Shown here piece after piece: positions 1,729-51,424 of a DNA stretch of 64,000 bases. The number at the start of each line of letters is the position of its first letter. Positions within the stretch are counted from its first letter, which is position 1. This DNA is from a virus, in the IMG/VR virus record IMGVR_UViG_3300031787_000005; one strand, given 5' to 3'. Under the pieces are notes generated by a model, which was not told the origin of the DNA, searched no databases, and saw only the letters and a list, made by a program, of their open reading frames with translations. Both the position numbers and the translations under genes were made by a program.

Positions 1729-1730
1729 TT

Positions 1731-3281: not shown

Positions 3282-3302
3282 TATACACTTAGCTTTTTTC
3301 TA

Positions 3303-3310
3303 TATTTATA
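3303..3310 (-). promoter_or_regulatory. T4-type late promoter TATAAATA
   Basis: Plus-strand TATTTATA 22 nt upstream of the gp8 start. Confidence 0.75.
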
Positions 3311-3316
3311 TTAGGT

Positions 3317-15300: not shown

Positions 15301-16528
15301 TAAATGAGATATCGGATACTGGAACAAATTTTGATAAAACGCCAGTAATTCTTACTTCTACTTTTTTTGTTAGATCGCCATCTTCATATCCATACATAAC
15401 CTCATCAAATCTAATATCTGATGCTGGTGATATTGCAGAAGTTATCCCACTACATCCCAAAAATTGATTAATTGTTTTATCAGTGTAGGTTATCGTATTT
15501 CCAGAACAGAATACTGTTCCTGATTTTGGAAACTCAACAGTTGAATCCACACTAATAACTTTTGCCCCTGCAGTAATATTTCCAATTACTTTAGTTTTTC
15601 CTGGAACATTAAATGTTCCTTCAATAAGAGCATTTTCACTAAATCCTACAAATAATGAAAGTTTATAATATACTAGATTATTTTTTGATATAATTTCAAC
15701 TTCAGAGACAGATGCTTTTGTTGCTGAATCAGTTGACTTTCTGATGGTTTGACCAACTAGTTTTAGTGGATCTCCAGAAATTCTTTGCACAAGAAGAGTT
15801 TCTCTTCTAATGTACTCTGCAGATGATGGTTTGATTAAATATTTTTCTAAGTCTACAATTCTTGGAGTTACTCCATATAAAATATTAAAAAGTATTCTAA
15901 ACGACTCTTTTGTACCTTTAGACGCATAGAAAGATCTAGCTTCTTTTATGAAGTTACTTACGTCTAGATTTTGGACAAATGTTAATTCTTCTAATCCAGG
16001 AGTAAGAGAATATTTTACCTTTTTATAAAATTCTTGTAAGAATAAAGCACTGAGATTTTTTACACTAGATCCATCTTCATGAGAAGCAGCTTCTGAAGTG
16101 GAAAAAACTAAGTCATTTCTTTCTAGTTCTTCATAATATGTTGTGATACCACTAAAACCACGAACACAACCAGTGAATGTATTTGTTGTAATTCCAGAAT
16201 ATGTGATAATTTCATCATCAATTTTTAATAGACCCCAATTTAACGGAAATCCTTTTGTACTTTCTACCGAAATTACATCAGATTCGCTTGTTATATCAGA
16301 TTCTAGTGTAGTTTCACCACTAACTACTTCTGGAGTTAAGTTATCAAGTTTTAAATATTGATCTAAATTCTCGACAATATCAATTGAACCTCCAGGAATT
16401 TCCTGAGAAATATAATATTGCTTTAAAAAATCAGCAGCTTTTGGAGATTCTGAAAGAATAAATTCTGGAAGTTGATTTTCTACAATTTGGTGAATTTTTA
16501 CTCTCGTTTCAAATCCCGTTTTTATCAT
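3317..16528 (-). CDS. gp7: Baseplate wedge initiator gp7 (giant cyanophage form, 4403 aa)
   Basis: N-terminus RVKIHQIVENQLPEFI..FLKQYY..KGTKESFRILFNILYG; lies between gp6 and gp8; many G-x-G-Y beta repeats. Confidence 0.85.
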   Translation of the reverse strand: MIKTGFETRVKIHQIVENQLPEFILSESPKAADFLKQYYISQEIPGGSIDIVENLDQYLKLDNLTPEVVSGETTLESDITSESDVISVESTKGFPLNWGLLKIDDEIITYSGITTNTFTGCVRGFSGITTYYEELERNDLVFSTSEAASHEDGSSVKNLSALFLQEFYKKVKYSLTPGLEELTFVQNLDVSNFIKEARSFYASKGTKESFRILFNILYGVTPRIVDLEKYLIKPSSAEYIRRETLLVQRISGDPLKLVGQTIRKSTDSATKASVSEVEIISKNNLVYYKLSLFVGFSENALIEGTFNVPGKTKVIGNITAGAKVISVDSTVEFPKSGTVFCSGNTITYTDKTINQFLGCSGITSAISPASDIRFDEVMYGYEDGDLTKKVEVRITGVLSKFVPVSDISFTDEGEIIYVKNLGEIIKNPDQFKTKKQIFSNTWIYNTSVRYQVKGISGSTFLLYSDIDKSSLKVGDTIEILRRNTQIVEYAGAIVSNINKSTKEILLNNLSGFNVDPLKEYDIRRNLNKATSSGAQIEYGNNVITSDVQNVYNENDEYMYVASNSLPSYPITTNLSSISLGEANGNRIQEYDPSSLKYSVLSFQSSVPFITGDEVYYKPENQSIPGLDEGLYYVRVLTESNKIKLYTSRSFIPSDDYIEFGTLDPGTGNHTFTLSFQNNLKIGPQKSLKKFPLFPDIQRSNRTKTEAETVGIMINGVEINSYKSNDRIYFGPLESINILNTGLNYDVINPPLIEVSSPGIGTTALIQPVVTGSVKEVFVDPQDFDIDDAVSVTITGGNGSGCILKPITSKRYRELDFSALPSSQGGGLDVILDDLSFIKDHNIKNGQALVYDKNGSPPVSIGTFAGSNDTTGIKTEYLENGSVYFAQVTGPKTVRLYRTEKDFNSGINTIGFTTASNIGFQKFRLLESANNVTRIDVLSSGEGYSNRKLRVFPSGISTSDNTINFVNHGFNDGETIVYSTNVGLGSTLPTIISGLSTAKQYQVIKLSDNKFRLADAGIGGTITSNYERKNYIKFQSKGTGYQVFQYPPISISVNVKYRDGISGIITATPIIRGVINDIYLYEKGTNYGSNILNLHKKPLITIKTGKDAQLKPYIKNGKIDSVQVLSGGREYYSTPDLVVSGEGTGAKLRAIIVNNAITEVRVINPGVNYLQDTTSITVKSAGSEVSLDPNVRSLRVNTFSRYGSDILKRSITNLKYCIVGYSTNIGSQYFGDTGSNHSPIIGWALDGNPIYGPYGYDNPQVNDSSVRLLNSSYVLNTNSITNRPSGFSAGFFIEDYVYNESGDLDESNGRFCKTPEFPLGTYAYFTTLKVNQTTNTIEPVFPYFLGDSFRSNLLDETYIINQDYNFKGTEIIRNTLPYNTSNQYSGSDFIVESNEIINQTSVVESVLRGSVDRLDIISAGDNYKIGDSAIFNNEDTSGSGASAQVSLIKGKEITNITTNTLKYQNVILIWKSENEVQGYISTTHTFNQSDNVYLSGISTSLKNVLGKNYKVGITTSQTFLYKAIPSTSIVGVITDIYVSSIPENMNVGDVVKVSGTETMTILNRFDDRKILRVTRNNSGFAHTLSAKVELVPTYFSLPISTPKFESKVNDIVYFNPVESVGVGTSVGFSTSVTYTIGIGELTGTTSIPIQSIRLPNHPFQTNQKVLIKKPPGEGSLFVQKTPNDSPTPILSSGDWEPFYVVKQSDDHIGIVTQVGLTTTTKGLFFANFGTNSFGYAVRSDFTQVTSDVNRVTTLVSLSTSHGLTNGDIINLDVKSNQAVGVGTSTSVRLRYDTIGQRILVNRITFSSSGINTIKDTITINRHGFTNGDKVYYRPVTTVASGLQTGDYYIYVLDENTFNFTETLYDNKIYPPSIVNINSVGGASHTIALVNPQLNIVRNNDIVFDVSDSTLDGYGLKFYYDSAFKNEFISVGNTANFVVSGVGTVGVSGDAKITLRYDTGMPQVFFYALEKSGFISTSDLDVTNASKINYIDSLYNGRYSVFDVAGNNFKISLTKIPESTSYTSTQCESCTYTTFSKTANGPIARLSLTSSGVSYKKLPVINGFNSVNGTGAQIYTASNTIGKIDQVRVIDPGFEYPSDVTLRPQALVPSTFFVLDTNIVKSIDITYGGRYYQSAPDLVLANSDGIAIDNGIITPTIGGSGIGKINIIEAPNGLNSSKHTLFATNNTNSFTISKVVYDRPTGIVTCTIQTPIAGYAQNVVNVGDKIFVEGVEKYETSGNGFNAIDNKFKFYDITAYRNTNPAELEFNLTGITTNAGIAVTTPTFASFVRYEDYPRFDVVTGATKFSIGEKILVFVNNEYIETDLVITEDRTTFIKAVGRYELEIGDLIIGSFSGTRAKVDSFINNNARFEINYSARQDLGWLDNVGKLNEDYQVLPDNDYYQSLSYTIKSPIEFEKLINPVNSLLHTVGLKNFSDTEVKSVSGAGVTVTPVESITTFDFINEDRVDTIYGFDLAVDNNVVQSRSKDIKLRNRKLSGYIECRTNNVLKIDDISSLFSNSRSSLNPYVETIFEDSFARFLIQIIDPATTDIQATEVIVVGGRPSDLVTFEKSSIFTTTNQPVDIEGNVNEYGDKTLRFYPANTTDIDYDIKILKTYFNADTAGIGTINVGFIDLAGSVDVATIGITTQIISTQSNKLESMYVTAEVYDKNNQQIKNIVELYITHDGTNTYQSDYFFDTIAIDNNSYTPIGTFTASLSGGIFALNYQNASYNGEVVVRSRVVGFGTTAVGVGTYRSILNGQIEGTERSFKFESDYVKVSAASTSIFKFDKTEVSTIKSLVRVSYGNTSALHQVLVANNNGNAVITQYPFVSIGSTSGIGTFGIDYSTSPAQLRFYRDPGITASLQISSFNEVIYTESDFSNNYPPIEYGKLRETMELLSYNAVNGSRSNKTSFKLTSDGVPIFSKKFSPSSSIFLNPVTGVFTIEKHFFNTGEKLIYTPGSTFIGIGSTAVGINTSITQAGFSTDILPSEVYAIRIDEDRFRLSTRKSDALAGIYVTFTSLGSGNAHELQMSTKLEKTLITIDGVVQYPLAYTPVNTPLQAGIGESTSVLSLGTIRDFIPDATIKVDDEIMRIINVGFATTSGAQITGFGTFTNIEVTRGYLGSIGTSHGIGSTVRVYSGTYNIDSGSIIYFTSAPTGKGTLEKNSNNVPYPRAVFGGRVYLRKDYSNNRIFDDISTSLSGVGRTYTATVSGLNTTGIQTGSAFLFLNGIFQTPTTANNPDNVYTFKQFDLPVSNIPNPELLPYDNIVQDYSQYAVGYAQSSYIVGTVGISSIIFSGITSSNGQNIISTDDVNQNQLPRGGVIISFGSTQGLGFAPLYPAQIGIVTNASGGISTIVAIGTYSAPTKVLGIVTGSYDNTTGIATFILNGAHNLRVGDPLGLSGLRFSCNSWTGISTFNVTGLVYNRTAGIATITVNGNHNLRAGKYVRLANIILSCPGNPIGYSTTRFPYPAGIGTLGNAYPQSSKNTLEGTYDVYRVIAGTAGTTIVLNVGVSTVNHVYVSGGTATVGVTTNIFPYPGAGPEGGIFRSLVGTGGSTIVVNGGISTIAHTYTGLGSCSVGIEWKDYNYGSGYYGGPVSIAITSPTGNSGVINAVVGAGGTLIFSIANAGTGYAATTTNINIREPSYENLPIVGVSRVGLGSTTDSGLNTLLTLKVGSNDNIAYDGVFYDAANLIESNIQLIAEVAVGRMLAFYPGFSVPNGNAECVDDIKSVLQTITHNLRFGGNDKVWDAANLYKTNPALLYGEEQQSIYAFNQARDMAIQAMRNEAINRGGYTNEIQIFDFTVIGDISGVPGVYSPSDCANVASAIGSFVGIITTTIATGIIPASKTVAPGSLFQVTEFDISRPGYAFRVGDVFKPVGLVTDARLASPISDFSITVLQTYSDQLASWELGEFDYIDSIKPLQNGVRKRFPLAFAGKLLSFETNDQDAESSLIKLENLLLIFINNVLQVPGESYEFTGGTSFTFTQAPEFEDSISIFFYNGTKESDSITIDVPETLKSGDSVKLSAFTGIASSKEQKDRTITLIAASDSIETNLYTGLGIDDDNFRELAWKKQKIDKVINGETIYKTRDSLESQIYPVARIIKDFTPASTELFVDDARFFNYEEDASATIIESVGGLIVYDTGYSTGSMTASINVTNTRVTGLTIVNAGSGYVGNTTTVSITRPRNLGVGIGTTATATVTITNGRLTTPITITNPGLGYTVAPKVLVPTPAPLKERVRNISVIEGFAGIITGISTTTGTGGHSLALKLNLKISSGDFSSLQVGYPICVTDTNVGRGVTSVDSGDASPVGVGTTFLNNIYYVHSITRAATNAEIITNIGSNSNITGLTTSGSFVGRFSWGKLSPIIRGSVAIGVTVSGLRVDSGLSTFPSIERRDYGLRSTGSLRKLLD

Positions 16529-16529
16529 T

Positions 16530-18437
16530 TTATCCCCTCTTTAGATCTCCGTTTGAATAGCTTGATGTTACCTTAAATCCAACACCAGATATTTGTTCAC
16601 CAGATGTGATTGTATCCTTAACCATATTTATGGTGGAATTATCGATGTTAAAACTCAGATATAGGTCTTTCAATCCAATAACATCATTAGACTCTGGATA
16701 CGCCTGAACTTCGACTATATTATTTGCTTCAATTGTAGAAGAAATATTCAACGTGTTTAATAGAATTTCTCCTTTTATGTAATCAACAGATCCTGCAGAT
16801 TTTACTACAACTACAGGTGATCCAACATCATCAGATTCTTTAACGATCGAAATAACTCCCTTTCCACTGCCATCTAAATTACCAGTTGCATCTTTATTGG
16901 GAATATCGGTAAGGTAAACAATATCTGAAGATCCTATGATTGTAAATCCAGTGCTTTTAATATTGTATCCTTTTGGATCAATATGGAATTGATTGCCGAA
17001 ACATAATTCATATTGAGCATACTGATTAACGGATGCTCTCAAGTTTCTTCTCATTTTGACTTTTGTAATGTTTGAAGTTATTGCTTCATCTACAGTGTCA
17101 ATGAGTTTTACGACTTTACTATATCTGAATCTACCACCAAACTTATTCACATCAGATGATTGTGAATAAAGAGTAATCGAATTTAGAATATTTGACTTTA
17201 AATTATCAATACTCGATACTTTTGATGGATTATAATAAACATAAGAATCAATCTCAACAAAGAGTACCTGGAGATCTACAATAGATTGATTGATTCCAGA
17301 CAAACTATAGTTCTTTAACTTCGAAAGAATCTGCCTCTTATCAAAGTCGGAGATAAAGTCTCCATTTTTTGGTTTAATACTAATAATTACATTTCCATAT
17401 TGGGGTGGATCTAACTCCTCTCCACCAACAATAGAAACTGATTCTGTGTTTGGATATATTTCACGAACAATCGATTCATAATCTCTAGCAGTTACGGCAC
17501 GATAATTTGAAGAGTATAGTCTAGGTGCAAAATATTTAATAGAGTCTACACTCTCAATATCACCACCATTAATCGAAGGTTGTGTGGTTGTAACATTTAT
17601 TGAAGCAGATGGCAAAATCACTTCATTTGATGATCCAAGAAGTCTTCCAGAAAAATCAAAACTTCTGGCACCATTACCATCTGCACCATCTGTAACAATA
17701 TATGATGCGCTAATTACGGCATTGTTTTCTGGTTTTTTGCCGAAGATACCATCTCCAAACAATAGTTGATATCTTTCGTCCTTAATCTCTTGAATTAGAT
17801 AAGTCTCAGATGTTGAATTGATATTTAAGATACTTGATGTTAAAGAATATTCTCTACCTTTTCCTAAATCCGCAACAGATTTTACATAAACTGTAATTGT
17901 TGATGTGTCAATATATGCATTATCTAATACAAATTTTTGATCCAAAGATCCATCTACAAGGAATTGATTGACTAAGTATGATCCTTGATAGATTGTGATG
18001 TCTTGGAAAGTCGCAACTCCATTGTTAATGGTCGTTGTTATTGATTCTGGAATCGAAAATAGATACGTCGTATCATTGATGCTTCCTACACACACCAAGC
18101 CCGCCTCTAAGGTGCATGTCGGGGATGTGCTACTAGTTTGTACCTGAAATGAAACAATTGCCTTAGAAGCAGTCCTGGAGCGAGGTACGTACCCAATGTT
18201 TCTCGCAAGCGCAACCACATTCTCTCTGAGAGTTGCAGAATCCAAGAAGGATTCATTCACAATCATATTAGAATTAAAAGCAGTTACGTATGTGTTATAC
18301 GCAAGAATATCAATCAGTACAGAAAGATTAGATCCATCAAAATCAAAATCAGTGAAATTTGAATTTGCCCTAATATAATCTTTAATGGATCTCTTTATGT
18401 CCTCATAATCTAGATTGGTGAATTGTGTAAAAGGCAT
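16530..18437 (-). CDS. gp6: Baseplate wedge subunit gp6
   Basis: NLDYEDIK..FTDFDFDGSNLSVLIDILAYNTY..NESFLDSATLRENVV, and RAVTARDYE. Confidence 0.92.
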   Translation of the reverse strand: MPFTQFTNLDYEDIKRSIKDYIRANSNFTDFDFDGSNLSVLIDILAYNTYVTAFNSNMIVNESFLDSATLRENVVALARNIGYVPRSRTASKAIVSFQVQTSSTSPTCTLEAGLVCVGSINDTTYLFSIPESITTTINNGVATFQDITIYQGSYLVNQFLVDGSLDQKFVLDNAYIDTSTITVYVKSVADLGKGREYSLTSSILNINSTSETYLIQEIKDERYQLLFGDGIFGKKPENNAVISASYIVTDGADGNGARSFDFSGRLLGSSNEVILPSASINVTTTQPSINGGDIESVDSIKYFAPRLYSSNYRAVTARDYESIVREIYPNTESVSIVGGEELDPPQYGNVIISIKPKNGDFISDFDKRQILSKLKNYSLSGINQSIVDLQVLFVEIDSYVYYNPSKVSSIDNLKSNILNSITLYSQSSDVNKFGGRFRYSKVVKLIDTVDEAITSNITKVKMRRNLRASVNQYAQYELCFGNQFHIDPKGYNIKSTGFTIIGSSDIVYLTDIPNKDATGNLDGSGKGVISIVKESDDVGSPVVVVKSAGSVDYIKGEILLNTLNISSTIEANNIVEVQAYPESNDVIGLKDLYLSFNIDNSTINMVKDTITSGEQISGVGFKVTSSYSNGDLKRG

Positions 18438-18438
18438 T

Positions 18439-18840
18439 TTACCTTGTGCTTTCTAAGATGAATCTAAATTGTTGCTGTGGAAAATCTTGCCCAATAATAT
18501 CGTATTGAATTGCTATTTCAAAAGTATTTTCATTAGGTGAAGGAGTCACATATACTTTTACATTCTCAATTCTTTCCTCATATGTTTTCAATGCCGTCTT
18601 AATTTCTTCTTCAATTAGCAATGCAGAACCAACGTCAACAAAATCAAAAAGCAATTCGTTGACTCTTGAACCAAAATTTGGATTAAAGAACTTTTCGGAA
18701 GGTATTGTTTCAATAATATTTCTCACAGAACGCTTTATTGCAGATTCATTCTTCAAGATCTGTAAATCTTTGGTGACAGGATGAGGCTCAAAGGATAAAC
18801 TAATATCCTTAAATGTTCTCGATATTCTCTCTACTGCCAT
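18439..18840 (-). CDS. gp25: Baseplate wedge protein gp25
   Basis: FKDISLSF.PHPVT.D..KNE.AIKRSVRNI..EKFFNP.FGS..LF; adjacent to gp6. Confidence 0.9.
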   Translation of the reverse strand: MAVERISRTFKDISLSFEPHPVTKDLQILKNESAIKRSVRNIIETIPSEKFFNPNFGSRVNELLFDFVDVGSALLIEEEIKTALKTYEERIENVKVYVTPSPNENTFEIAIQYDIIGQDFPQQQFRFILESTR

Positions 18841-18863
18841 CGGAGACTAAGATTTTCTTCATT

Positions 18864-18870
18864 TATTTAG
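18864..18870 (-). promoter_or_regulatory. Late promoter (CTAAATA)
   Basis: TATTTAG on plus, 24 nt upstream of gp25. Confidence 0.6.
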
Positions 18871-18872
18871 GA

Positions 18873-19115
18873 TCATTTCCATGGAGATCCGTATGTTGGT
18901 TCTGTTCCATAGGTCCAATCATCATAGTCTTCATCATTACGAATTTTTTCATGCAGATCAGTTTGTTTCTTTAAATCATGCTTTGGTGCAGAATCGTGCA
19001 TGACTTCCTGAATGATTCTTTTTGGTGGTGCCGAATCATAATCAGTGATCAATTTTGTGGTTCCCCACATCTCTCTCATGTAATTTGAATCTCTATCTAT
19101 AGGTAGATTTGACAT
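18873..19115 (-). CDS. Conserved hypothetical protein
   Basis: 80-aa ORF preceded by a CAGGAG SD-like sequence. Confidence 0.7.
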   Translation of the reverse strand: MSNLPIDRDSNYMREMWGTTKLITDYDSAPPKRIIQEVMHDSAPKHDLKKQTDLHEKIRNDEDYDDWTYGTEPTYGSPWK

Positions 19116-19184
19116 TTTAGCTCCTGTTTTAATGAATAAAACAGAACTTTTATGAAGGAGGTTGCTATCTCCTTAAGTATTTAA

Positions 19185-19526
19185 CTACCGATCAACTTCT
19201 CTAAGACGATAGTTATCAGAATTGAGATATTTTAGCATTTCTAAGGCAATGAGTCGAGGGTTTCCTTCCCCACAAGTATATACATCGATTGCCAAACACC
19301 CATTTTCTGGCCAAGTATGACAAGAAACATGACTTTCCGAGAGTGCAATAACAACTGTGCACCCCTGTGGAACAAAACAATGGGCAAAAATGTTAAGAAT
19401 TGTCATCTTTGCACGTTTAATACCACTCTCCATCGCTGCCTGGAGTGATATCGCATCGTTTAAAAGTGCAAAATCCACATCATACACCTCTAAGAGCAGG
19501 TGTTTGCCCATTGAAAAATGTTCCAA
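19185..19526 (-). CDS. speD: S-adenosylmethionine decarboxylase proenzyme (pyruvoyl-dependent SpeD family)
   Basis: MGKHLLLEVYD, LSESHVSCHTWPE (E-S autocleavage motif), DVYTCG. Confidence 0.9.
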   Translation of the reverse strand: MEHFSMGKHLLLEVYDVDFALLNDAISLQAAMESGIKRAKMTILNIFAHCFVPQGCTVVIALSESHVSCHTWPENGCLAIDVYTCGEGNPRLIALEMLKYLNSDNYRLREVDR

Positions 19527-19547
19527 CTCAGTTTTTAATTAAAAAAT

Positions 19548-20003
19548 CTATTTATTTCTTATCTTTTGCACCAGTTCATAGTCTTTTTCTAAAATTTTCT
19601 TCAAATATTCATCATCCCACAGGTCATAATAACTAGTCTTTGCCAAAATTAGTCTCATTTTGGTTAAAAATTGAGAATTTTGGTACAAAACTAAGTTATA
19701 CTTGGCATTATTCGTCTGAACGCCACTGATAAAACTATCCTCATCACGAAAATCATCAAAAAATTTGTATTTTGCATACTTTTGATTTAATTCTTCAATC
19801 TTTTGATACCCATAATCAATATCTAAGTCATCTTCAACCACAAAAATAACGACACCAAACTCTTCATCGAGAGGTTTGATGTCGTCTATCGAGCAACTTA
19901 CGATTTTATAAGTATTTGCCTTTGCGAATGGACAAATTGAATGACCTTTTAGATCTGGATGTGACGTTTGAATGTGTTTAATCCAATCTTCAAGGTCTTT
20001 CAT
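19548..20003 (-). CDS. Hypothetical protein with CPFAK motif (DUF1415-like)
   Basis: 151-aa ORF, WIKHI..HP.LKG.SICPFAK. Confidence 0.6.
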   Translation of the reverse strand: MKDLEDWIKHIQTSHPDLKGHSICPFAKANTYKIVSCSIDDIKPLDEEFGVVIFVVEDDLDIDYGYQKIEELNQKYAKYKFFDDFRDEDSFISGVQTNNAKYNLVLYQNSQFLTKMRLILAKTSYYDLWDDEYLKKILEKDYELVQKIRNK

Positions 20004-32898: not shown

Positions 32899-32958
32899 AT
32901 TATAGGGCAAAGGAGAGGGGGGTTCAACGACTCCTGTACCACTTGTTCAACTGTCCAC
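32899..32958 (-). promoter_or_regulatory. Promoter cassette 11
   Basis: TATAAT; dyad TGTACCACTT-GTTC-AACTGTCCAC. Confidence 0.65.
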
Positions 32959-33849
32959 CTTCACGATCAGGATCTCATGAGATTCTTTAGTATTGCTCCC
33001 ACCAGATACAATACGATTATCACCAATACGTGTCTCTCCTAATTGATAGGAATAGTGCCACTCTGGGAAATACTGATCAAAATCTTTGTAGTATTCACGG
33101 ATCGTCTCACAATTGTTGTAAGACAGGATAAAACTGCCTTTATGGTTGTGCAACAGATCCCTCAGTGTTTCATGATCAAAACCAGTATGATGCACGTCAA
33201 TATTGCAGTTGGGATACATTCCCTTCAGCATTTTGTTATCGGAATCCTTATCCAAATAGTATGGAGGATCCAGATAAAGAAGATCACCAGAATGTTCTGG
33301 GATTACATCAACAAACGATGCCTTTTCCACATGCAGATCTTTATTCTTGTAGGATCTGATGTTGTGGACCATCTTATCCCATTTGGTCTGACTTTCATAG
33401 ATCTTACTCATCCAACCCAGATACATCGGTCCATAGGACAGATTATGATTGAAATAATAGTATGCTGCAGCAGTCAGATCATCCAATTGGATTGGATCAC
33501 GCTTATAATAATCAGTGTGCCAATCTTTGAGCATGTCCTGAGTATACTGCCACTGCAGCAACATTTCCTTAATCTCAGCATACTTTTCCTTGGTAGGAGT
33601 CAACTCCTGAAGTTTATCTGCCAACTCATGTGGAGAAGACAGAAGAACATTCCAGAAGTTGACCAGGGCATCAAAGATGTCGAACCCATAAACAGGAACG
33701 CCAAGTTCAGATGCCCACTTTGATTCTAAACTACCTCCACCAACAAATGGTGAGATGATACGCTGGGGATATGGTAGTCTAGGAATATATTGGGTGATAA
33801 GTTTGTATGCCTTTGACTTACCACCAGCATAGCGGAGAGGTGTCTTCAT
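32947..33849 (-). CDS. dam: D12-class N6-adenine DNA methyltransferase (Dam-like)
   Basis: PLRYAGGKS, SPFVGGGS (SAM binding), LYLDPPY catalytic motif. Confidence 0.88.
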   Translation of the reverse strand: MKTPLRYAGGKSKAYKLITQYIPRLPYPQRIISPFVGGGSLESKWASELGVPVYGFDIFDALVNFWNVLLSSPHELADKLQELTPTKEKYAEIKEMLLQWQYTQDMLKDWHTDYYKRDPIQLDDLTAAAYYYFNHNLSYGPMYLGWMSKIYESQTKWDKMVHNIRSYKNKDLHVEKASFVDVIPEHSGDLLYLDPPYYLDKDSDNKMLKGMYPNCNIDVHHTGFDHETLRDLLHNHKGSFILSYNNCETIREYYKDFDQYFPEWHYSYQLGETRIGDNRIVSGGSNTKESHEILIVKVDS

Positions 33850-34434: not shown

Positions 34435-34493
34435 ATTATACTGCCTGCATCAGGCGGTTGGGGAAATGGTGTACCACTTCTGGAACTGGCACA
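34435..34493 (-). promoter_or_regulatory. Promoter cassette 12
   Basis: TATAAT; GCCTG/CAGGC hairpin; dyad TGTACCACTT-CTGG-AACTGGCACA. Confidence 0.7.
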
Positions 34494-34912
34494 TTCAATT
34501 CATCATACAAATACTCCAGATATAGGGTTTCTTCTTGCTCCCGTGCCTCTATTTCGTGTGCCTGATGCCAATAGTCCACATCTTCCATACATTCTTTACC
34601 ATAATACATTTTTCCGCTTCGGAGTCGCAGTGAACCTACTACCCACTGCCGCAGGTGCGTCAGTTCATGTAAAAGAGTTTGTATATACAACTCTTGGTCC
34701 ATATGGGTATTCAGTTCAATCAGGAAGTGACGGGGGCGATAAGTTTCACCCACAACATCACAATACCCATAAACACACTCACGATTCAGACCACGATGAA
34801 CAATATCCACCGTGATCTTGTGGCGTGGGAAGAACCTATTCAGAAACCAAGAGGTAACATCCTCACAGATCCGCTTGCGATAACCATATCCAGAATGCGT
34901 GATGTAAGACAT
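34436..34912 (-). CDS. Zn-dependent metallopeptidase-like protein (HExxH)
   Basis: TLLHELTHLRQW plus downstream HEIEA. Confidence 0.7.
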   Translation of the reverse strand: MSYITHSGYGYRKRICEDVTSWFLNRFFPRHKITVDIVHRGLNRECVYGYCDVVGETYRPRHFLIELNTHMDQELYIQTLLHELTHLRQWVVGSLRLRSGKMYYGKECMEDVDYWHQAHEIEAREQEETLYLEYLYDELNVPVPEVVHHFPNRLMQAV

Positions 34913-34974
34913 TGACCCCAGTGCAAAAACCAAATGAACGATGAAACAAACAGGAGTTTTTCTTTAGCAGTCAT
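34840..34974 (-). CDS. 44-aa hydrophobic peptide overlapping the metallopeptidase 5' end
   Basis: Manual translation MTAKEKLLFVSSFIWFLHWGQCLTSRILDMVIASGSVRMLPLGF. Confidence 0.5.
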   Translation of the reverse strand: MTAKEKLLFVSSFIWFLHWGQCLTSRILDMVIASGSVRMLPLGF

Positions 34975-34976
34975 AC

Positions 34977-35432
34977 TCAACGAGCGTACAAATAAGAACC
35001 TGCCCAGTCAGCATTCTCAAGCAACCATTCACGCTGCTCAATGATACGCAGATCGTAGCGAACACCTTTGGCAGGAGACTTCCAAGATGCAGACTTGTAA
35101 ACCTGACCAGTCTTCTTATCCACAAAAGCATGAACAGAGCGGGAACCATTAGCAACCATAATGATTTTGTGATACTTACGACCCGTTTCAGGGTAGAACT
35201 CATAATCACAAATACCTTCTTTCAGTTTAGCAACAGATGCCTTGTGATAGGCAATACCAGTTTCAGTATTACCTTCCAGACGCTTCAGAGAACTCTGATG
35301 GGACTTGATGCTATATTCAATGTAGTTCTGGCGCAGTGCCTCACAGAGAGCATAGGTGTGCCCCAGAACTGCCTCTGCGATGTTCTTCCGTGCCTCTGCT
35401 TGGGCGGAATACTCAGCGAAGGTGGTGGTCAT
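34977..35432 (-). CDS. Conserved phage hypothetical protein
   Basis: GRKYHKII..SRSVHAFVDKKTGQVYKSASWKSPAKGVRYDL. Confidence 0.75.
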   Translation of the reverse strand: MTTTFAEYSAQAEARKNIAEAVLGHTYALCEALRQNYIEYSIKSHQSSLKRLEGNTETGIAYHKASVAKLKEGICDYEFYPETGRKYHKIIMVANGSRSVHAFVDKKTGQVYKSASWKSPAKGVRYDLRIIEQREWLLENADWAGSYLYAR

Positions 35433-35453
35433 TGCTTGGTTGCGTATGTGCTT

Positions 35454-35512
35454 ATTATAGGGCACTCAGAGGCGCCCAGAGCGGTCAGTATGCCAGTTCA
35501 GGATCTGGCACC
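35454..35512 (-). promoter_or_regulatory. Promoter cassette 13
   Basis: TATAAT; dyad TATGCCAGTT-CAGG-ATCTGGCACC. Confidence 0.65.
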
Positions 35513-36418: not shown

Positions 36419-36625
36419 TTATTCACTCAAAGAACTACCACGCCAGTTCTTTGGAGTGGGTGGATCACACTTCCCTTCCAGACTTTTGACCATTAATTGA
36501 GCAAATTTCTCCATTTTTTCTGCAGAAACAGATGCTGGACGATAGGTAATTGCCTCTTTTAGGGCAACAAGTTCGTTCCATTCTTCAGTTGTGAGGTCAG
36601 CCGTGCTGGTTTTGGGGAGTGACAT
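36419..36625 (-). CDS. Hypothetical protein
   Basis: LTTEEWNELVALKEAI..PASV..KMEKF..L.VKSLEGK. Confidence 0.65.
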   Translation of the reverse strand: MSLPKTSTADLTTEEWNELVALKEAITYRPASVSAEKMEKFAQLMVKSLEGKCDPPTPKNWRGSSLSE

Positions 36626-36714
36626 AGAGTTTCCTGCGATGTAGTTCAATGTTAGCATTCCAATATAATACTATCTAGAAACTTAATGTTTTCTTTGGGA
36701 TCATGTTACACTGC

Positions 36715-37341
36715 TTAATAATGCATCTCTGCAACATATCTTTTTAGGTAATCAATCTTGACATCAACTGATAAAATAATCCTTTCTTTTGTTCCACCAT
36801 GCACAACAGAATGCTTAAGGGGTCCACCATCTTTGAATGCAAGGATCTTTCCATCTTCCCATGTTCTAGTTTGATCACCAACTGTAATTCTACATCCAGG
36901 ATCGCATGAGATTCCAAGATGCATTCTCATGTAATTATCAGTCCATCCAGTGTGAGGATTGATAACTGAACCAGGAACCAATCTGCTGATAAAAGAATTA
37001 TGAAGAACGTCTAGTTCTTCTTCATACTTTCTGAGTATTCCCGTTGTTACTGGACATTTTTTTCTAGAGTTTTCAATGATAACTTTTAGAAATGCCATCT
37101 CTTGCTCACTAGCATAAGATGACATAAACTCACCCTCAAACTTTGTTAAAGGTGCTGCCTTCCAATAGTGCTCATATAGATTTCTACCATCAATTTGGTA
37201 TCGTGGATAATCAAATAACGATAAAGGTGCCTCACAAAAGTTAAGGACTTCTTCTTTAATTACTGGATAATTTTCAATCAGTTCATTATATACTGGAACA
37301 TCTTCAAAATAAGAGTCCCAAAATGCTATTTTCTTGCTCAT
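36715..37341 (-). CDS. Asp/Asn beta-hydroxylase-family (LpxO-like) 2OG-Fe(II) oxygenase, paralogue 1
   Basis: PGSVINPHTG..RMHLG..TVG..RTWEDGKILAFKD..HSV.H..ERIILSVD. Confidence 0.85.
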   Translation of the reverse strand: MSKKIAFWDSYFEDVPVYNELIENYPVIKEEVLNFCEAPLSLFDYPRYQIDGRNLYEHYWKAAPLTKFEGEFMSSYASEQEMAFLKVIIENSRKKCPVTTGILRKYEEELDVLHNSFISRLVPGSVINPHTGWTDNYMRMHLGISCDPGCRITVGDQTRTWEDGKILAFKDGGPLKHSVVHGGTKERIILSVDVKIDYLKRYVAEMHY

Positions 37342-38006
37342 TTTAAATACTTCTCCAGGTAACTTAACTTAAGATCAAACGACATAACATATCTATCTTT
37401 CTTTCCATTATGGACTACACTATGATAGTATGGACCGCCATCTTTAAATGCTAATATTTTACCATTCTTCCACGTTTTTGTCACGTTTCCTACAGTTATC
37501 TGGCATCCAGGATCTTCCACAAGACACAAGTGAACTCTCATATAATCTTTAGAGTATCCTTGATGAGGTCTGATAATTGTACCAGGAGATAGCATACTTA
37601 GGAACATATTCGCAAGTATTCCTTCTTTTTCTGGTTTTTTAATAATATTATGAATTACAGGTGTTAATATCCATCGATACTGATCAATTAACATGTCGAG
37701 ATCCTTTCCTCCCTGCAACTTCTTTACGATCATATTCACTTCATGATGATATGACTCGCTGAATCTGGAGAGAGCTAGAACATCCCAGGTATTATCATAC
37801 ATTCTCACCTTTTGACCAGTTTGTGGATCGGTAATCTTATACTTTGGATAAGGATTCATCCATTTGTAAGAAGATCCACCGACCTTTGGAAATAGTTTAG
37901 ATTTGATAATGAGTTCCCACTTAATGAATCTCCAATACCGCATAAATGTGCGACATATGGGCTCATCCATCAAATAATCTTCCCAAAATTCTGGTTCTTG
38001 TGTCAT
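37338..38006 (-). CDS. Asp/Asn beta-hydroxylase-family oxygenase, paralogue 2
   Basis: PGTIIRPHQG..RVHLCL..KTWKNGKILAFKD..YHSVVH..DRYVMSFD. Confidence 0.85.
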   Translation of the reverse strand: MTQEPEFWEDYLMDEPICRTFMRYWRFIKWELIIKSKLFPKVGGSSYKWMNPYPKYKITDPQTGQKVRMYDNTWDVLALSRFSESYHHEVNMIVKKLQGGKDLDMLIDQYRWILTPVIHNIIKKPEKEGILANMFLSMLSPGTIIRPHQGYSKDYMRVHLCLVEDPGCQITVGNVTKTWKNGKILAFKDGGPYYHSVVHNGKKDRYVMSFDLKLSYLEKYLK

Positions 38007-38677
38007 TCGATGTCAATATATTCTTTCAGGTAATCTACACTCAAGTCAAACGAAAGATAGAGTCGATCTTGGTCCTTACTTTCATTCTTCATGCTGATAA
38101 AATATGGACCTTGATCTCGAAATGCCAGAATATCTCCATCACTCCAGGTTCGAGTCTCATCACCAACAGTAATCGTGGCAGCATCATCGTCCCAGGCAAG
38201 TCCCAGATGCACTCGTACATATTCTTTAGTCCAACCTTTATGACGATTCACCACACAACCAGGATAAAGTGTGCCGAGGAAAGCATTCGCCAGTTTCTTA
38301 TCTCGTTCTGCTCTCCAGATCAGATTATGAAGTACAGGTAGACCACGCTTACGCAGTTTCCTAATAGTATCATCCAGACTCAGATCGAGTTTCTTCTCTT
38401 GTTCTTCCTTAAATTCAAGGAACTCTGGACTTACAGACTTCTCCTCATCAACATAACCAACAGGAAGAGTTGTCCAGTTACCAGTATACAATGGATTCTG
38501 ATCTCCAGTATCAGGATCCACAACCAAAGGATTGAAATAAGGAAGCGACCAGTGTGCTGCCATACCAGCAAAATGAGTCAGTTCAATATAAAGTTTATCA
38601 AAGTTTTCAATCAATGAAGCACAGATAGGTTCCTTTCCTTGCTTCAGTTTAAAATCCCAAAATGCAGGTTCTGTCAT
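38003..38677 (-). CDS. Asp/Asn beta-hydroxylase-family protein, paralogue 3 (distal His missing)
   Basis: PGCVVNRHKG..RVHLGL..RTWSDGDILAFRD, but PYFISM in place of PYYHSV. Confidence 0.8.
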   Translation of the reverse strand: MTEPAFWDFKLKQGKEPICASLIENFDKLYIELTHFAGMAAHWSLPYFNPLVVDPDTGDQNPLYTGNWTTLPVGYVDEEKSVSPEFLEFKEEQEKKLDLSLDDTIRKLRKRGLPVLHNLIWRAERDKKLANAFLGTLYPGCVVNRHKGWTKEYVRVHLGLAWDDDAATITVGDETRTWSDGDILAFRDQGPYFISMKNESKDQDRLYLSFDLSVDYLKEYIDIE

Positions 38678-38704
38678 ACTTAAATCTCCACTTGTAGTAT
38701 TATA

Positions 38705-39895
38705 TCACACTTCGATGACTTGACTGATACACTTACCACCAAAGGCAAATGAATTGTTGAGAGTGCGAAGTGTTCGGTTTGGTAGTTCTAGATTCTCCTT
38801 GACAAGACATTCTTTTCTGTCAAGTGAACATTTATTTAGGTTCTGGATGTGAGGGATGACTCTGTTCTTCATCGACTCAATTGCATAGATTGTTTCAAGA
38901 ATACTAGCAGCGCCGATTGTATGCCCAATCTTACTCTTTGGTGCATAGATTGGAGTCTTATCAAGAACATCCGTGATTGCCATATATTCAATCGGATCAC
39001 CAATGAATGTGGAGGTTGCATGACCCGATACAGCATCAATGATCATGGGCATAGGACTATGCATATCAGCGTTCTTCAGCGCCTTTGTAATCGCTATCTT
39101 GGCGCCTCTGGCATCAGGTGCTGGAGCAGTCATATCCAGGGCATCAGACGCCATTCCAGCGGGGTATAGAGTGGCGTGAATGGTGCTACCATACTCCTTT
39201 GCCTTCTGACTGGATTGTAGGATCAGGCATCCAGCACCATCACCCATCATGAAACCTTCACGCTTGTCATCAAATGGGCAGTTATAGTTTCCAAGGGCAC
39301 CAAGTGCCTGAAAATATAACATCAGTTCCACGTTCACATTATAGTCAGACGATCCAACCACAACATATTCATATTCATCACACAGGCGTTGAGCATACTC
39401 CATGGTAAACATTGAGGTTGCACATGATGCCAACATGGAAACAGATGCTCCCATGAATCCATAATGTCCACACAGGTGAGATGGAATCATATCAGGCAGA
39501 ATGTTTACCAGTTTCCGCAGATTGATTCGCTTGTTATTATACAAATCATTTACAATCTTGTTACCTGCCTCATAGGAATTAGAAGCAGATGAAAAGATCA
39601 CGGCAACTTCCTGCTGTGGTTTCAGACCAGACATCTTAAGTGCCTGCTCTACAACATGGAATGCAAGAAGTTGTGACCTTGTGTAGGTTCGCATCAATTT
39701 GGGATCAAGATCTGGCAGTTGTAGAGTTTCATAGTCTACCATCAGACCCCTGGTGATCTTTTCACCCCGTTCAATCATGGGATGAAAATCCACAGAATAA
39801 TCTACATCATCCAAAAACCTTGGAAAACAATCGCTAGGATTGTTACCCAAAGCGTCAATCATTCCATAACCAACAACATGGACTGGATTAACCAT
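38705..39895 (-). CDS. fabF: Beta-ketoacyl-ACP synthase (FabF/FabB-type)
   Basis: Cys-His-His triad (ASCATS, GHATST, KSKIGHTIGAA), PFDDKREGFMMGDGAG, NNSFAFGG. Confidence 0.88.
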   Translation of the reverse strand: MVNPVHVVGYGMIDALGNNPSDCFPRFLDDVDYSVDFHPMIERGEKITRGLMVDYETLQLPDLDPKLMRTYTRSQLLAFHVVEQALKMSGLKPQQEVAVIFSSASNSYEAGNKIVNDLYNNKRINLRKLVNILPDMIPSHLCGHYGFMGASVSMLASCATSMFTMEYAQRLCDEYEYVVVGSSDYNVNVELMLYFQALGALGNYNCPFDDKREGFMMGDGAGCLILQSSQKAKEYGSTIHATLYPAGMASDALDMTAPAPDARGAKIAITKALKNADMHSPMPMIIDAVSGHATSTFIGDPIEYMAITDVLDKTPIYAPKSKIGHTIGAASILETIYAIESMKNRVIPHIQNLNKCSLDRKECLVKENLELPNRTLRTLNNSFAFGGKCISQVIEV

Positions 39896-41884: not shown

Positions 41885-42032
41885 CTTTGTTTATGTAGGG
41901 ATGAGGTGCATAAAGAGGACCAGGATAATTTCCAGCAAACTTTTGATACGCTTTAAGTGCAGCAATTACCTCTGGGGTCTCCTCCCAGTTCCACTCATTA
42001 CCATTTTTGTCAGTAAAAGTTCTTAAAGTCAT
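41865..42032 (-). CDS. Hypothetical 55-aa protein
   Basis: Manual translation MTLRTFTDKNGNEWNWEETPEVIAAL...; ATGA-coupled. Confidence 0.6.
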   Translation of the reverse strand: MTLRTFTDKNGNEWNWEETPEVIAALKAYQKFAGNYPGPLYAPHPYINKDGKETN

Positions 42033-43063
42033 AGAGTAATCCAGCGATTGTTTTTAAGTGTCCATTGAGTTACTTCTGCGATACGTTCTCTAACAGACTT
42101 AGAAGGAACCCATCCCAGTTGCTTCATTTTATCACCATCAAGGGCATAACGCAAATCATGTCCAGGACGAGAAGAATGAAAATCTACCAAATCATACTTC
42201 AGTTCTTTTCCTTGGGCTTCGGCAATGATTTGTGCAAGTTCCAAGTTATTGAGCTCTTCCGCTCCGACAATGTTAAACTTAGGACACTTAGCATTACCCC
42301 AAGTAGGTTCGAACTTACCCTCATAATTTAACAGAAATAGAACAGCAGATGCGACATCTTCGGCATGAATGTAATGGCGAGAACCAGGAATCGTTCTGGT
42401 AGAATCACTATGAATCGTCACATTTTCACCATCACGAATCCGTTTGATGCACATCGGAATATACTTCTCAGGATGTTGACGCTCACCAAACACATTCATT
42501 GTGTGGGTGATGTAAATTGGAAGATTATATGTATTTTCATAAGCAACAGCAAGTTCTTCACCACCTGCCTTGGTTGCACTATAAGGATTAGTCGAATTAT
42601 AACGATCATTCTCCTTATATTTGATTCCGTTTGGTGCAGGACCAAAAACTTCATCAGTACCAAAATAGACAAATCGTTCCAGATTATCTTTCTGAAGACG
42701 TGCAAATTCAAGAATGTTACAGGTCGCAACAACATTATCCATGACAAATTCCATGGGATAAAGAATGCTACGATCAACATGAGATCCAGCAGCAAGGTGT
42801 AGAATGTAATCTACATTACCAATCTCAGAGCGAACCAAAGGATTGAGTTCTGCCTTCAAATCATGGTGAACAATCTTCACACGCTTACGAACTTCAGGAT
42901 CAAATGAAAGCATCAGATCGTGAAGACGATTTAGATTTCCACTATAATCAAGACGATCAAGTGTGATCACTTCCCAATCAGTTGTCTTGAGAATTTGTCC
43001 AATCAGATGGTGAGCAATGAAACCTGCACCACCAGTAATAAGTGCTCTTTTAGTCATAGTCAT
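42029..43063 (-). CDS. rmlB: NAD-dependent epimerase/dehydratase (dTDP-glucose 4,6-dehydratase, RmlB-like)
   Basis: LITGGAGFIA, HLAAGSHVDRS, GTDEVFG, PYSATKAG, FGERQHPEK, RPGHDLRYA. Confidence 0.85.
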   Translation of the reverse strand: MTMTKRALITGGAGFIAHHLIGQILKTTDWEVITLDRLDYSGNLNRLHDLMLSFDPEVRKRVKIVHHDLKAELNPLVRSEIGNVDYILHLAAGSHVDRSILYPMEFVMDNVVATCNILEFARLQKDNLERFVYFGTDEVFGPAPNGIKYKENDRYNSTNPYSATKAGGEELAVAYENTYNLPIYITHTMNVFGERQHPEKYIPMCIKRIRDGENVTIHSDSTRTIPGSRHYIHAEDVASAVLFLLNYEGKFEPTWGNAKCPKFNIVGAEELNNLELAQIIAEAQGKELKYDLVDFHSSRPGHDLRYALDGDKMKQLGWVPSKSVRERIAEVTQWTLKNNRWITL

Positions 43064-49861: not shown

Positions 49862-50058
49862 TGTACTTTCCTCTTTTTTAAGTAATGATGGTTTTCAGAA
49901 TCAAAGATTGTCCATTTTGCTATTTTAAGACACATTAGCACAGTTTGGTGCTCTCTCTGATACAAGTCCCAATCTTCTTTAAGTTTTGCAGCGTGTCTTC
50001 TACGATAGGCACAGCACCAAACATTTTTATAAATTTGTGCTTTTTCGGTTAAAGTCAT
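49858..50058 (-). CDS. Hypothetical protein
   Basis: NVWCCAYRRR..LYQREH. Confidence 0.6.
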   Translation of the reverse strand: MTLTEKAQIYKNVWCCAYRRRHAAKLKEDWDLYQREHQTVLMCLKIAKWTIFDSENHHYLKKRKVH

Positions 50059-50765
50059 CCCAAACTTCTCAAAAAATCTTTGTCAATTTCCTGATCAAAA
50101 CAGAGGCAGTATCTTGGTGTAGATAATTCATTTTCTACTTTATGGCGAATTCTACCCCAAAAGAACATGTGTTGATTGTTTACGAACAATCTTTTCTCTG
50201 CTTTTTCTCTATTGTTACCAAACATTAGATAACATTCTTTACCTTCTTCCTGACGAACATCAAGTCCCCAGAGACCACGAATAATTGCTAGATTATCACG
50301 TTCTGGATCTGGATCAAGATGCCAACCAATACCTTTACCAGGACCAACCATACTAATACCAAATCTTCTCTTAATTCCAGCCTCTCTCATTGTTGATGTG
50401 AGAATAGGAAGTAATTCAGAGTTTTCTCTGTGATATCCAATTTTTTCTTCTTTAACAAAAATTGGATCTCCAAAGTTTTTGCCAATAATTGTGGGTGCTA
50501 TTTTAACAAATGAGTCCCATTCATCATCAGTGATTAGTTTTGCACTAAAGGGATCTCTACACTCCATAAAGATCGGAGCAATTTGCCAACCAGCATAAGC
50601 AATTGCAGTATGACCAGAATACCCAGTATCATATCCCCAGTTACACCAATAAATCTTATCGAAATTGTCAAGAAATTCTTTTTGAATCTCTTCAAATCTT
50701 TCCTCAACAAGTTTAAGTTTTGGATTTAACTCCTCAAGAGTAAAGAAACGATCTATTTTATTCAT
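50055..50765 (-). CDS. Asp/Asn beta-hydroxylase-family oxygenase
   Basis: PGKGIGWHLD (HxD) ... IRHKVENELSTPRY. Confidence 0.75.
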   Translation of the reverse strand: MNKIDRFFTLEELNPKLKLVEERFEEIQKEFLDNFDKIYWCNWGYDTGYSGHTAIAYAGWQIAPIFMECRDPFSAKLITDDEWDSFVKIAPTIIGKNFGDPIFVKEEKIGYHRENSELLPILTSTMREAGIKRRFGISMVGPGKGIGWHLDPDPERDNLAIIRGLWGLDVRQEEGKECYLMFGNNREKAEKRLFVNNQHMFFWGRIRHKVENELSTPRYCLCFDQEIDKDFLRSLG

Positions 50766-51424
50766 AGCATACTTCTAAAAAATACATTTGGTTTATTATT
50801 AATGTGTGCAAGACTTTTAGAGGCAAACACATCCATTGCTATCACTGTTCTTGGTTGAGACATCATATTCTCAACACGATGAGTAGTATTTGAGTCAAAA
50901 GTATAAAACTTATTGTTCTCAAACAATTGAGTTTCTACATTTCCAGATTCATCTTTCATTTGAAAGATCGAATATTTATCTTCTTCTACTGGAACATCAA
51001 TTCCCCACAAAACACGATAGGTATTCAATCCTCCACCACCATAATCCTTATCACAATGCCAATCTAATGAAGCTCCTGGATGTAATACGTTGATTCCCGC
51101 AACTAATACTGCTTTAATGGAAGAAAGTGTTTGACATAATATAGGAAGGTACATTGCATTGCATGGATGAAATACTCCATGGTAACTCAATGCTCCCATA
51201 TGCCATCCAATATCACTATTGGTTTGCTTGGCATCCAAATAACTATTGAATTGAATTGGAAATCCTCTTTTATTTTGTGTAATATATTCCTTTTGTTGAT
51301 CTGTAAAATCCCTAATTTCTAGAGATTCTCGATTTGTGACAAACTCATCGTGAATTGAATCAAAATTGTCGGATAATATCTGCAATTCTGGTAGAATCTC
51401 TTTATAGTCTAAGAAGAGAGACAT
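50762..51424 (-). CDS. Asp/Asn beta-hydroxylase-family oxygenase
   Basis: PGASLDWHCD (HxD) ... FDSNTTHRVENMMSQPRTVIAMD. Confidence 0.78.
   Translation of the reverse strand: MSLFLDYKEILPELQILSDNFDSIHDEFVTNRESLEIRDFTDQQKEYITQNKRGFPIQFNSYLDAKQTNSDIGWHMGALSYHGVFHPCNAMYLPILCQTLSSIKAVLVAGINVLHPGASLDWHCDKDYGGGGLNTYRVLWGIDVPVEEDKYSIFQMKDESGNVETQLFENNKFYTFDSNTTHRVENMMSQPRTVIAMDVFASKSLAHINNKPNVFFRSML

Follow-up and report, generated by a model that had tools for sequence, protein, structure and literature searches.

A FabF-like ketosynthase gene coupled to three AspH-family genes in a T4-like cyanophage, tentatively read as an acyl elongation and oxidation module

What use would a cyanophage have for a condensing enzyme of the fatty-acid type placed ahead of a run of hydroxylase-like genes? 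This question is raised by the IMG/VR virus record IMGVR_UViG_3300031787_000005, of which one stretch of 64,000 nt (hereafter the window) was analysed in silico and compared to related loci. Four minus-strand open reading frames (ORFs), together spanning positions 36715-39895, were verified and encode a ketosynthase (KS) and three paralogues of the aspartyl/asparaginyl beta-hydroxylase (AspH) family PF05118. The best reading of this cassette, put forward tentatively and on the basis of predicted proteins and gene neighbourhoods, is that of a facultative viral module that would elongate and oxidise acyl chains carried on acyl carrier protein (ACP). The cassette genes and the two backbone genes that border them are the following:

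38705-39895, minus strand: ketosynthase (KS, P0001), 396 aa, with the N- and C-terminal ketoacyl-synt Pfam domains
38003-38677, minus strand: AspH-family paralogue 1 (P0002), 224 aa, PF05118
37338-38006, minus strand: AspH-family paralogue 2 (P0003), 222 aa, PF05118
36715-37341, minus strand: AspH-family paralogue 3 (P0004), 208 aa, PF05118
39895-40131, minus strand: backbone gene upstream of KS (phrog_1179), 78 aa, TAATG-coupled to KS
36419-36658, minus strand: downstream backbone gene at the other cassette edge, 79 aa, syntenic in Synechococcus phage S-SRM01

The start of KS lies in the junction gagTAATGgtt, which couples it to the 78-aa gene upstream. KS ends with a TGA followed by a 27-nt spacer containing GGAG and by the ATG of P0002, while ATGA overlaps of 4 nt each join P0002 to P0003 (38003-38006) and P0003 to P0004 (37338-37341); no terminator-like site was found between the cassette genes on the minus strand. 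The first-pass annotation had described the four genes as a single co-oriented and translationally coupled unit, which was verified for the coordinates, the TAATG, the 27-nt gap and both overlaps. The GC content of the cassette is not distinct from that of its flanks. When compared to a 91%-identical locus (L002), each of the four genes displays a ratio of non-synonymous to synonymous substitutions (dN/dS) of 0.04-0.06, for a dS of about 0.7-1.6, indicating that all four are under strong purifying selection and are therefore maintained. The operon is real and ordinary-looking, a variant of the auxiliary gene sets that are familiar in phages.

The KS matches the N- and C-terminal ketoacyl-synt models of Pfam with E-values of 2e-20 and 1e-23 (73.7 and 83.7 bits for a gathering score of 20.8) and contains the ASCATS, GHATST and KSKIGH motifs. 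Across 34 members of the KS family sharing 53-84% identity, Cys158, His292, Lys320 and His325 are invariant, as are the HATST, GD..E and C-terminal NNSF(G/A)FGG motifs, and the gating residues F383 and F385; all of the catalytic residues align to those of FabF. The Cys-His-His triad that had been noted earlier is intact, and the predicted protein has the full set of residues that acyl transfer and malonyl decarboxylation require. The label "FabF-type" has to be corrected, since KS is no FabF orthologue: it scores 182.7 bits against the FabF equivalog model TIGR03150, whose cut-off is 493.75, it is only ca. 25-30% identical to solved FabF and FabB structures, and in a maximum-likelihood tree its family forms one clade (support 100) apart from canonical FabF. 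Moreover, the three Deinococcales genomes searched all possess a canonical FabF (ca. 566 bits) together with a second, viral-type KS (ca. 220 bits). By these scores and this tree, KS is a member of a distinct, almost wholly viral FabF-like family.

No PHROG match was obtained for KS and no close homologue was found among 50,697 GenBank phage records, in which the best matches were fabF/fabB-like stretches of 23-34% identity, some of them in records with bacterial names. In metagenomes, the family comprises 346 clusters (word-indexed search) and occurs on at least 126 IMG/VR contigs. A pattern-limited scan of 185,579 species genomes detected cellular carriers as ten loci in metagenome-assembled genomes (MAGs) of uncultured Deinococcales, together with a single putative carrier contig from a Flavobacteriales MAG. 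Neighbouring genes were scanned on two of the Deinococcales contigs, which proved cellular, with genes for a major facilitator superfamily (MFS) transporter, a subtilase, TrmFO/GidA, a PASTA kinase and solute-binding proteins. The Deinococcales KS genes form a single clade nested in the viral radiation, in a tree whose rooting is provisional because one outgroup row (L098, branch length 10) was mis-extracted and is to be disregarded; this suggests a transfer of the KS gene between viruses and Deinococcales. In these bacteria, the viral-type KS gene (L091-L094, L085-L089) stands alone, with an MFS transporter gene adjacent in some genomes.

All three genes that follow KS match PF05118, with E-values of 1e-13, 3e-20 and 9e-30 (52, 73 and 104 bits for a gathering score of 22.6) for P0002, P0003 and P0004, respectively. 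Their earlier description as three Asp/Asn-beta-hydroxylase paralogues holds for the family but not for the active site, as only two of them keep both iron-binding His. In P0003 and P0004, the AspH-type HxG..H iron pair and the Arg that binds 2-oxoglutarate (2OG) are both conserved and, by residue set, these proteins are predicted to be competent Fe/2OG oxygenases. P0002 has kept the HxG His and the 2OG-binding Arg, with an Ile at the position of the distal Fe-binding His that is conserved in all five orthologues, down to 62% identity. Because of this replacement, P0002 probably does not work as a standard hydroxylase; yet its dN/dS of 0.04 (versus L002) indicates that it is maintained by selection.

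P0004 aligns to the oxygenase domain of human AspH (E-value of 9e-14) and its AlphaFold model, with a predicted local distance difference test (pLDDT) value of 94, matches AspH over the whole length with template modelling (TM) scores of 0.70-0.74. P0002 to P0004 each correspond to a bare AspH catalytic domain with neither a tetratricopeptide repeat (TPR) domain nor a hydrophobic segment, and no transmembrane segment was predicted in any of them (maximum 19-residue Kyte-Doolittle mean of 0.65-1.0). The only NCBIfam models touched by the three paralogues are those of LpxO (NF033391) and OlsC (NF052565), with 23-36 bits for cut-offs of 500 and 450, respectively. Two further tandem AspH-like genes are located on the minus strand, 11 kb from the KS cassette, at 50055-50765 and 50762-51424 (PF05118 E-values of 5e-4 and 3e-12); they display a classical HxD motif and ATGA-type coupling, and bring the AspH-family genes of the phage to at least five. 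Apart from this pair, no other oxygenase family was found elsewhere in the window. Cellular relatives of the paralogues occur in a Burkholderiaceae context without functional clue, another match being once again a T4-like phage.

Whether oxygenases recur next to KS was assessed in a set of 98 stretches, corresponding to 97 loci around KS homologues plus the window, whose ORFs were clustered; for counting, KS genes were collapsed at 80% identity into 33 groups, referred to as lineages. A cupin or 2OG oxygenase gene directly adjoins KS in 13 of the 33. Oxygenase-like genes occupy 13/66 positions next to KS versus 10/541 positions at least five genes away (odds ratio of 13, p of 5e-8), an enrichment that is biased upward because the oxygenase profiles were first recognised near KS, and for which the KS lineages are not fully independent. 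In the clade of the window (19 rows, support 96), one to three PF05118 genes follow KS in L001, L002, L003, L005 and L011, and two members (L004 and L013) have KS without AspH; at the same backbone site, the block carries from one to three AspH copies among relatives. The family of the neighbouring oxygenase differs by KS clade and is either PF05118, an unnamed cupin family with HxD..H..R residues, 2OG-FeII_Oxy_3 or PhyH, and profile comparison tied only some of the neighbour clusters to AspH (cluster 12).

In other clades, up to five tandem copies of Ox2, an unnamed family of ca. 200 aa for which there is no Pfam model, abut KS. Its residues H81, D83 and H158 are invariant and R167 nearly so, and its structural model (pLDDT 86) displays a cupin or double-stranded beta-helix fold with weak matches (TM 0.3-0.5) to PCO, GriE, OGFOD1 and NO66; because these matches are weak, "cupin-fold metalloenzyme" is a more prudent label than "2OG oxygenase". 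Arrays of two to five tandem Ox2 paralogues are located upstream of KS in L014, L021, L022, L025, L034, L038, L046, L048 and L062, and the ESM Atlas clusters containing Ox2 are 95-100% viral.

In the sister lineage (L009, L070/L076 and L012), an acyl-ACP desaturase gene (FA_desaturase_2) overlaps both KS and a PhyH gene. An ACP with a DSL motif is encoded in the flank of L009, L070 and L012, the first two of which also have P450 and AspH-like genes. In L009, the run upstream of KS consists of this ACP followed by four 2OG oxygenases, a P450 and two AspH-like genes, and most of this run is retained in the other loci of the lineage. An acyl-thioester substrate is favoured by the presence of ACP, acyl-ACP desaturase, P450 and PhyH genes in this lineage. 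Besides, DesC-type membrane desaturases with the His boxes HRxxSH, HRxHH and HxxHH are found within 8 kb of KS in 29 loci. A tailoring context unlike that of the window occurs in L007/L008, in which KS adjoins a divergently oriented FA_desaturase gene and lies downstream of genes for a sulfotransferase, a glycosyltransferase and a 710-aa methyltransferase-glycosyltransferase fusion.

That no ACP gene is visible in the window, as the first-pass annotation had remarked, was borne out with a viral ACP probe run against the six-frame translation, and PF00550 was not found in a 115-kb IMG/VR record, 99% identical, which should span the equivalent of the window. Since no ACP was found among three complete or near-complete KS phages either, host ACP is implied as the carrier. 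No desaturase was detected in the window or in the 115-kb record. The 78-aa gene upstream of KS was considered as an ACP candidate and rejected: it contains a DSL tripeptide but has no Pfam match, belongs to phrog_1179 and is kept in phages that have no KS, namely S-SRM01 and S-CAM1.

Under the reading favoured here, KS would load acyl groups from host acyl-ACP during infection and would extend them by condensation with malonyl-ACP, also from the host, so that the acyl-ACP pool of the host would change in chain length or in flux. Oxidation of the acyl chain, most likely a hydroxylation, would be the task of the adjacent oxygenases, either on the thioester itself or directly after transfer; host lipids would thereby receive modified fatty acyl groups (hydroxylated or of greater length), unless the product is a free oxidised lipid. 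LpxO and OlsC are, to our knowledge, the only members of PF05118 that act on lipids and, because of them, hydroxylation of an acyl chain is chemically plausible. A broader proposal would have the viral FabF-like family anchor the oxygenase arrays of aquatic T4-like phages in a pathway peculiar to viruses, in which fatty acyl chains would be assembled and oxidised on the ACP of the host (or, in one lineage, of the phage) to yield hydroxy- or oxo-lipids only in infected cells, with the His-less paralogue as a non-catalytic subunit; taken as a whole, we hold this to be unlikely.

Several observations weigh against an acyl module. No oxygenase adjoins KS in 20 of the 33 lineages, PF05118 was not found in two KS phages, one complete (G007) and the other 92% complete (G006), and AspH-like genes are common in T4-like phages without KS, being reported as core to pelagimyophages (PMC7029224). 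The characterised structural match of P0004, AspH, is a protein hydroxylase and not a lipid enzyme, and the cassette has no reductase, dehydratase, acyltransferase or thioesterase. The hypervariable regions of cyanophages are known to gather dioxygenase genes (PMC2938197), and both qualifications attached to the enrichment above count on the same side. Because G007 and G006 have no AspH gene and 20/33 lineages no adjacent oxygenase, the link between KS and AspH is facultative; the co-occurrence of KS and hydroxylase genes that had been anticipated for related phages does recur, but it is not the rule and some genomes have no PF05118 gene at all.

It is quite possible, if on balance doubtful, that the four genes are independent auxiliary genes which share a hypervariable slot, KS tuning host elongation much as cyanophage desaturases are thought to tune membranes, and the AspH-like proteins hydroxylating phage structural or host proteins, or unrelated small molecules. 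KS and AspH-like genes are each found without the other, the second AspH-like pair of the window has no KS, and AspH, the best structural match, acts on proteins; cyanophages in general carry tandem dioxygenase arrays, and beta-hydroxylases have been proposed to modify collagen-like or tail-collar proteins (PMC2938197). Against this stand the adjacency and the overlapping stops and starts that recur in several deep KS clades with non-homologous oxygenases, the acyl-ACP desaturase, PhyH and ACP found beside KS in the sister lineage, and the missing TPR domain, which AspH uses to hold its protein substrate. A small-molecule pathway, polyketide-like or oxylipin-like, in which KS would use host ACP to build a scaffold, either a short beta-keto or an extended acyl one, for the oxygenases to tailor into a diffusible metabolite, appears improbable. 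Secondary-metabolite roles for such arrays were proposed by Iyer et al. 2010 (PMC2938197), the L009 lineage with its ACP, four 2OG oxygenases, P450, two AspH, KS, desaturase and PhyH resembles a tailoring cluster, and L007 adds a sulfotransferase, a glycosyltransferase and a methyltransferase; yet no chain-length factor, cyclase, thioesterase, loading or release enzyme occurs in the window or in most loci, and the oxygenases of the window cassette are all AspH-type.

The first-pass annotation had favoured an LpxO-like 2-hydroxylation and chain remodelling of host lipid A, leading to receptor masking or superinfection exclusion. LpxO and OlsC are indeed the sole NCBIfam models touched, and a gene for a nucleotide-sugar epimerase/dehydratase, located 2 kb upstream, is also found near KS in other clades. 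The bit scores nevertheless fall far short of the cut-offs, LpxO and OlsC are membrane enzymes whereas the paralogues have no hydrophobic segment, and there is no Lpx-type acyltransferase nearby, so that this reading is not supported and is left with very little probability. Hardly any more is left for KS acting as a brake, where an over-supply of the FabF-like protein would titrate malonyl-ACP or FabD and stop host fatty-acid synthesis, freeing carbon and reductant for the phage. FabF overproduction does shut down fatty-acid synthesis in E. coli, the complete KS phages have no partner fab genes or ACP, and KS stands alone in most lineages. Yet strict conservation extends to all catalytic residues, the His pair used in decarboxylation and the gating Phe among them, and this speaks for an enzyme that turns over rather than one that sequesters; the linkage of KS to desaturases, which need products, speaks against a brake as well. 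The facultative acyl elongation and oxidation module therefore remains our tentative preference.

The carrier of the cassette is a T4-like myovirus, and its host type is marine Synechococcus. Baseplate wedge and tail-fibre matches (phrog_2885, phrog_219, phrog_438 and phrog_529) identify a T4-like cyanomyovirus of the Kyanoviridae type, and the best DNA matches of the window are to Synechococcus phages S-SRM01, S-SKS1, S-CAM7 and S-SM2. In S-SRM01, the closest cultured relative, a CP12 homologue (located beyond the 79-aa gene, downstream of the cassette), the 79-aa gene, the 78-aa gene and an AbrB-like gene occur in the same order, with a single 122-aa ORF where the window has a 3.2-kb block. 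Because the flanks are syntenic and the block is replaced by this ORF, the block corresponds to a cassette in a conserved backbone, in agreement with its earlier placement among ordinary cyanophage genes.

Other features of the window were recorded in passing. Its GC content shifts from 32.7% at positions 1-20000, a structural block that includes a baseplate-type ORF of 4403 aa (3317-16528), to 40.5% at 20001-64000, with a peak of 48-49% at 20-24 kb. The epimerase/dehydratase gene upstream of the cassette (42029-43063, minus) encodes a predicted NAD-dependent sugar-nucleotide enzyme (GDP_Man_Dehyd and Epimerase, with a weaker NAD_binding_4 match); homologues are found within a few genes of KS in two other clades (L060-L066; L070/L076), a gene of the same family resembling it also occurs near KS in L009, and it is present in S-SM2, which gave no KS match. 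On the other side, a DUF7717 protein (34977-35465, minus; E-value of 1e-45, with a marginal match to the ribosome-inactivating protein family, E-value of 0.004) is encoded next to a SprT/DUF6782-like putative metallopeptidase (34436-34933) and a D12 adenine methyltransferase (32947-33849).

Cyanophages and pelagiphages are rich in 2OG and cupin oxygenase genes, for which DNA repair, 2OG sensing, secondary metabolites and protein hydroxylation have been suggested since 2010, and no report settling the substrates of phage oxygenase arrays was found in the literature. A conserved, residue-intact condensing enzyme within such arrays provides a testable lead, namely that acyl thioesters are what these oxygenases act on. 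Should this prove correct, some of the most abundant cells in the ocean would acquire a distinct lipid chemistry upon infection, with a bearing on membrane function during infection, on lipid biomarkers and on carbon flow. The KS family also provides a natural collection of FabF-like enzymes that apparently function with foreign ACPs.

Parts of this picture have precedents. The claim of an undescribed system was overstated because fabF in pelagimyophages (PMC7029224) and tandem dioxygenase arrays in cyanophages (PMC2938197) have already been published; our literature search found no paper that analyses this family of viral KS or its occurrence within oxygenase arrays. The genes fabF, fabG and fabZ have been reported as virome auxiliary genes at depth (PMC10653327). 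For the cyanophages P-HM1 and P-HM2, AspH-like genes, ACP and ACPS have been noted (PMC3037559); P-HM1 was considered in this respect and set aside, as no ACP is annotated within 9 kb of its tlmH.

With FabF of Thermus thermophilus (1J3N) and E. coli (2GFW), the viral KS has in common the full-length KS domains, the Cys-His-His triad, the Lys, HxTST and GD..E motifs and the F-G-F-G-G gate; it differs by its low identity and by its separate, well-supported and almost entirely virus-borne clade. The model of P0004 shares with the human AspH oxygenase domain (5APA, 5JQY) the whole-length fold, the two-His iron site and the 2OG-binding Arg, at 25-27% identity, whereas the phage proteins have neither TPR domain nor membrane anchor and P0002 has lost the distal His. 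LpxO and OlsC belong to the same Pfam family, of which the phage proteins are members without being members of either subgroup. Cyanophage lipid desaturases (Roitman et al. 2017, PMC5776448) are a precedent for phage genes acting on host acyl chains; such a gene is missing from the window and present in the 29 related loci mentioned above. Freshwater pelagimyophages, for which fabF and a stearoyl-CoA desaturase are listed without analysis (Zaragoza-Solas et al. 2020, PMC7029224), are likewise T4-like aquatic phages with a fabF-annotated gene and AspH-like genes, and desaturases are located nearby in many KS relatives; here, in contrast, the host is of Synechococcus type, KS is in operon with three AspH paralogues, and a link of KS to oxygenase arrays and to an ACP is documented at the level of the family. 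Finally, the tandem dioxygenase arrays described in cyanophages such as Syn9, for which a metabolite role was proposed (Iyer et al. 2010, PMC2938197), resemble the loci studied here in that runs of paralogous and non-paralogous 2OG/cupin oxygenases occupy variable regions of cyanomyoviruses. The available part of that paper reports no condensing enzyme, whereas in the present loci KS either heads the array or occupies its middle, a position that suggests the class of substrate on which these oxygenases may act.

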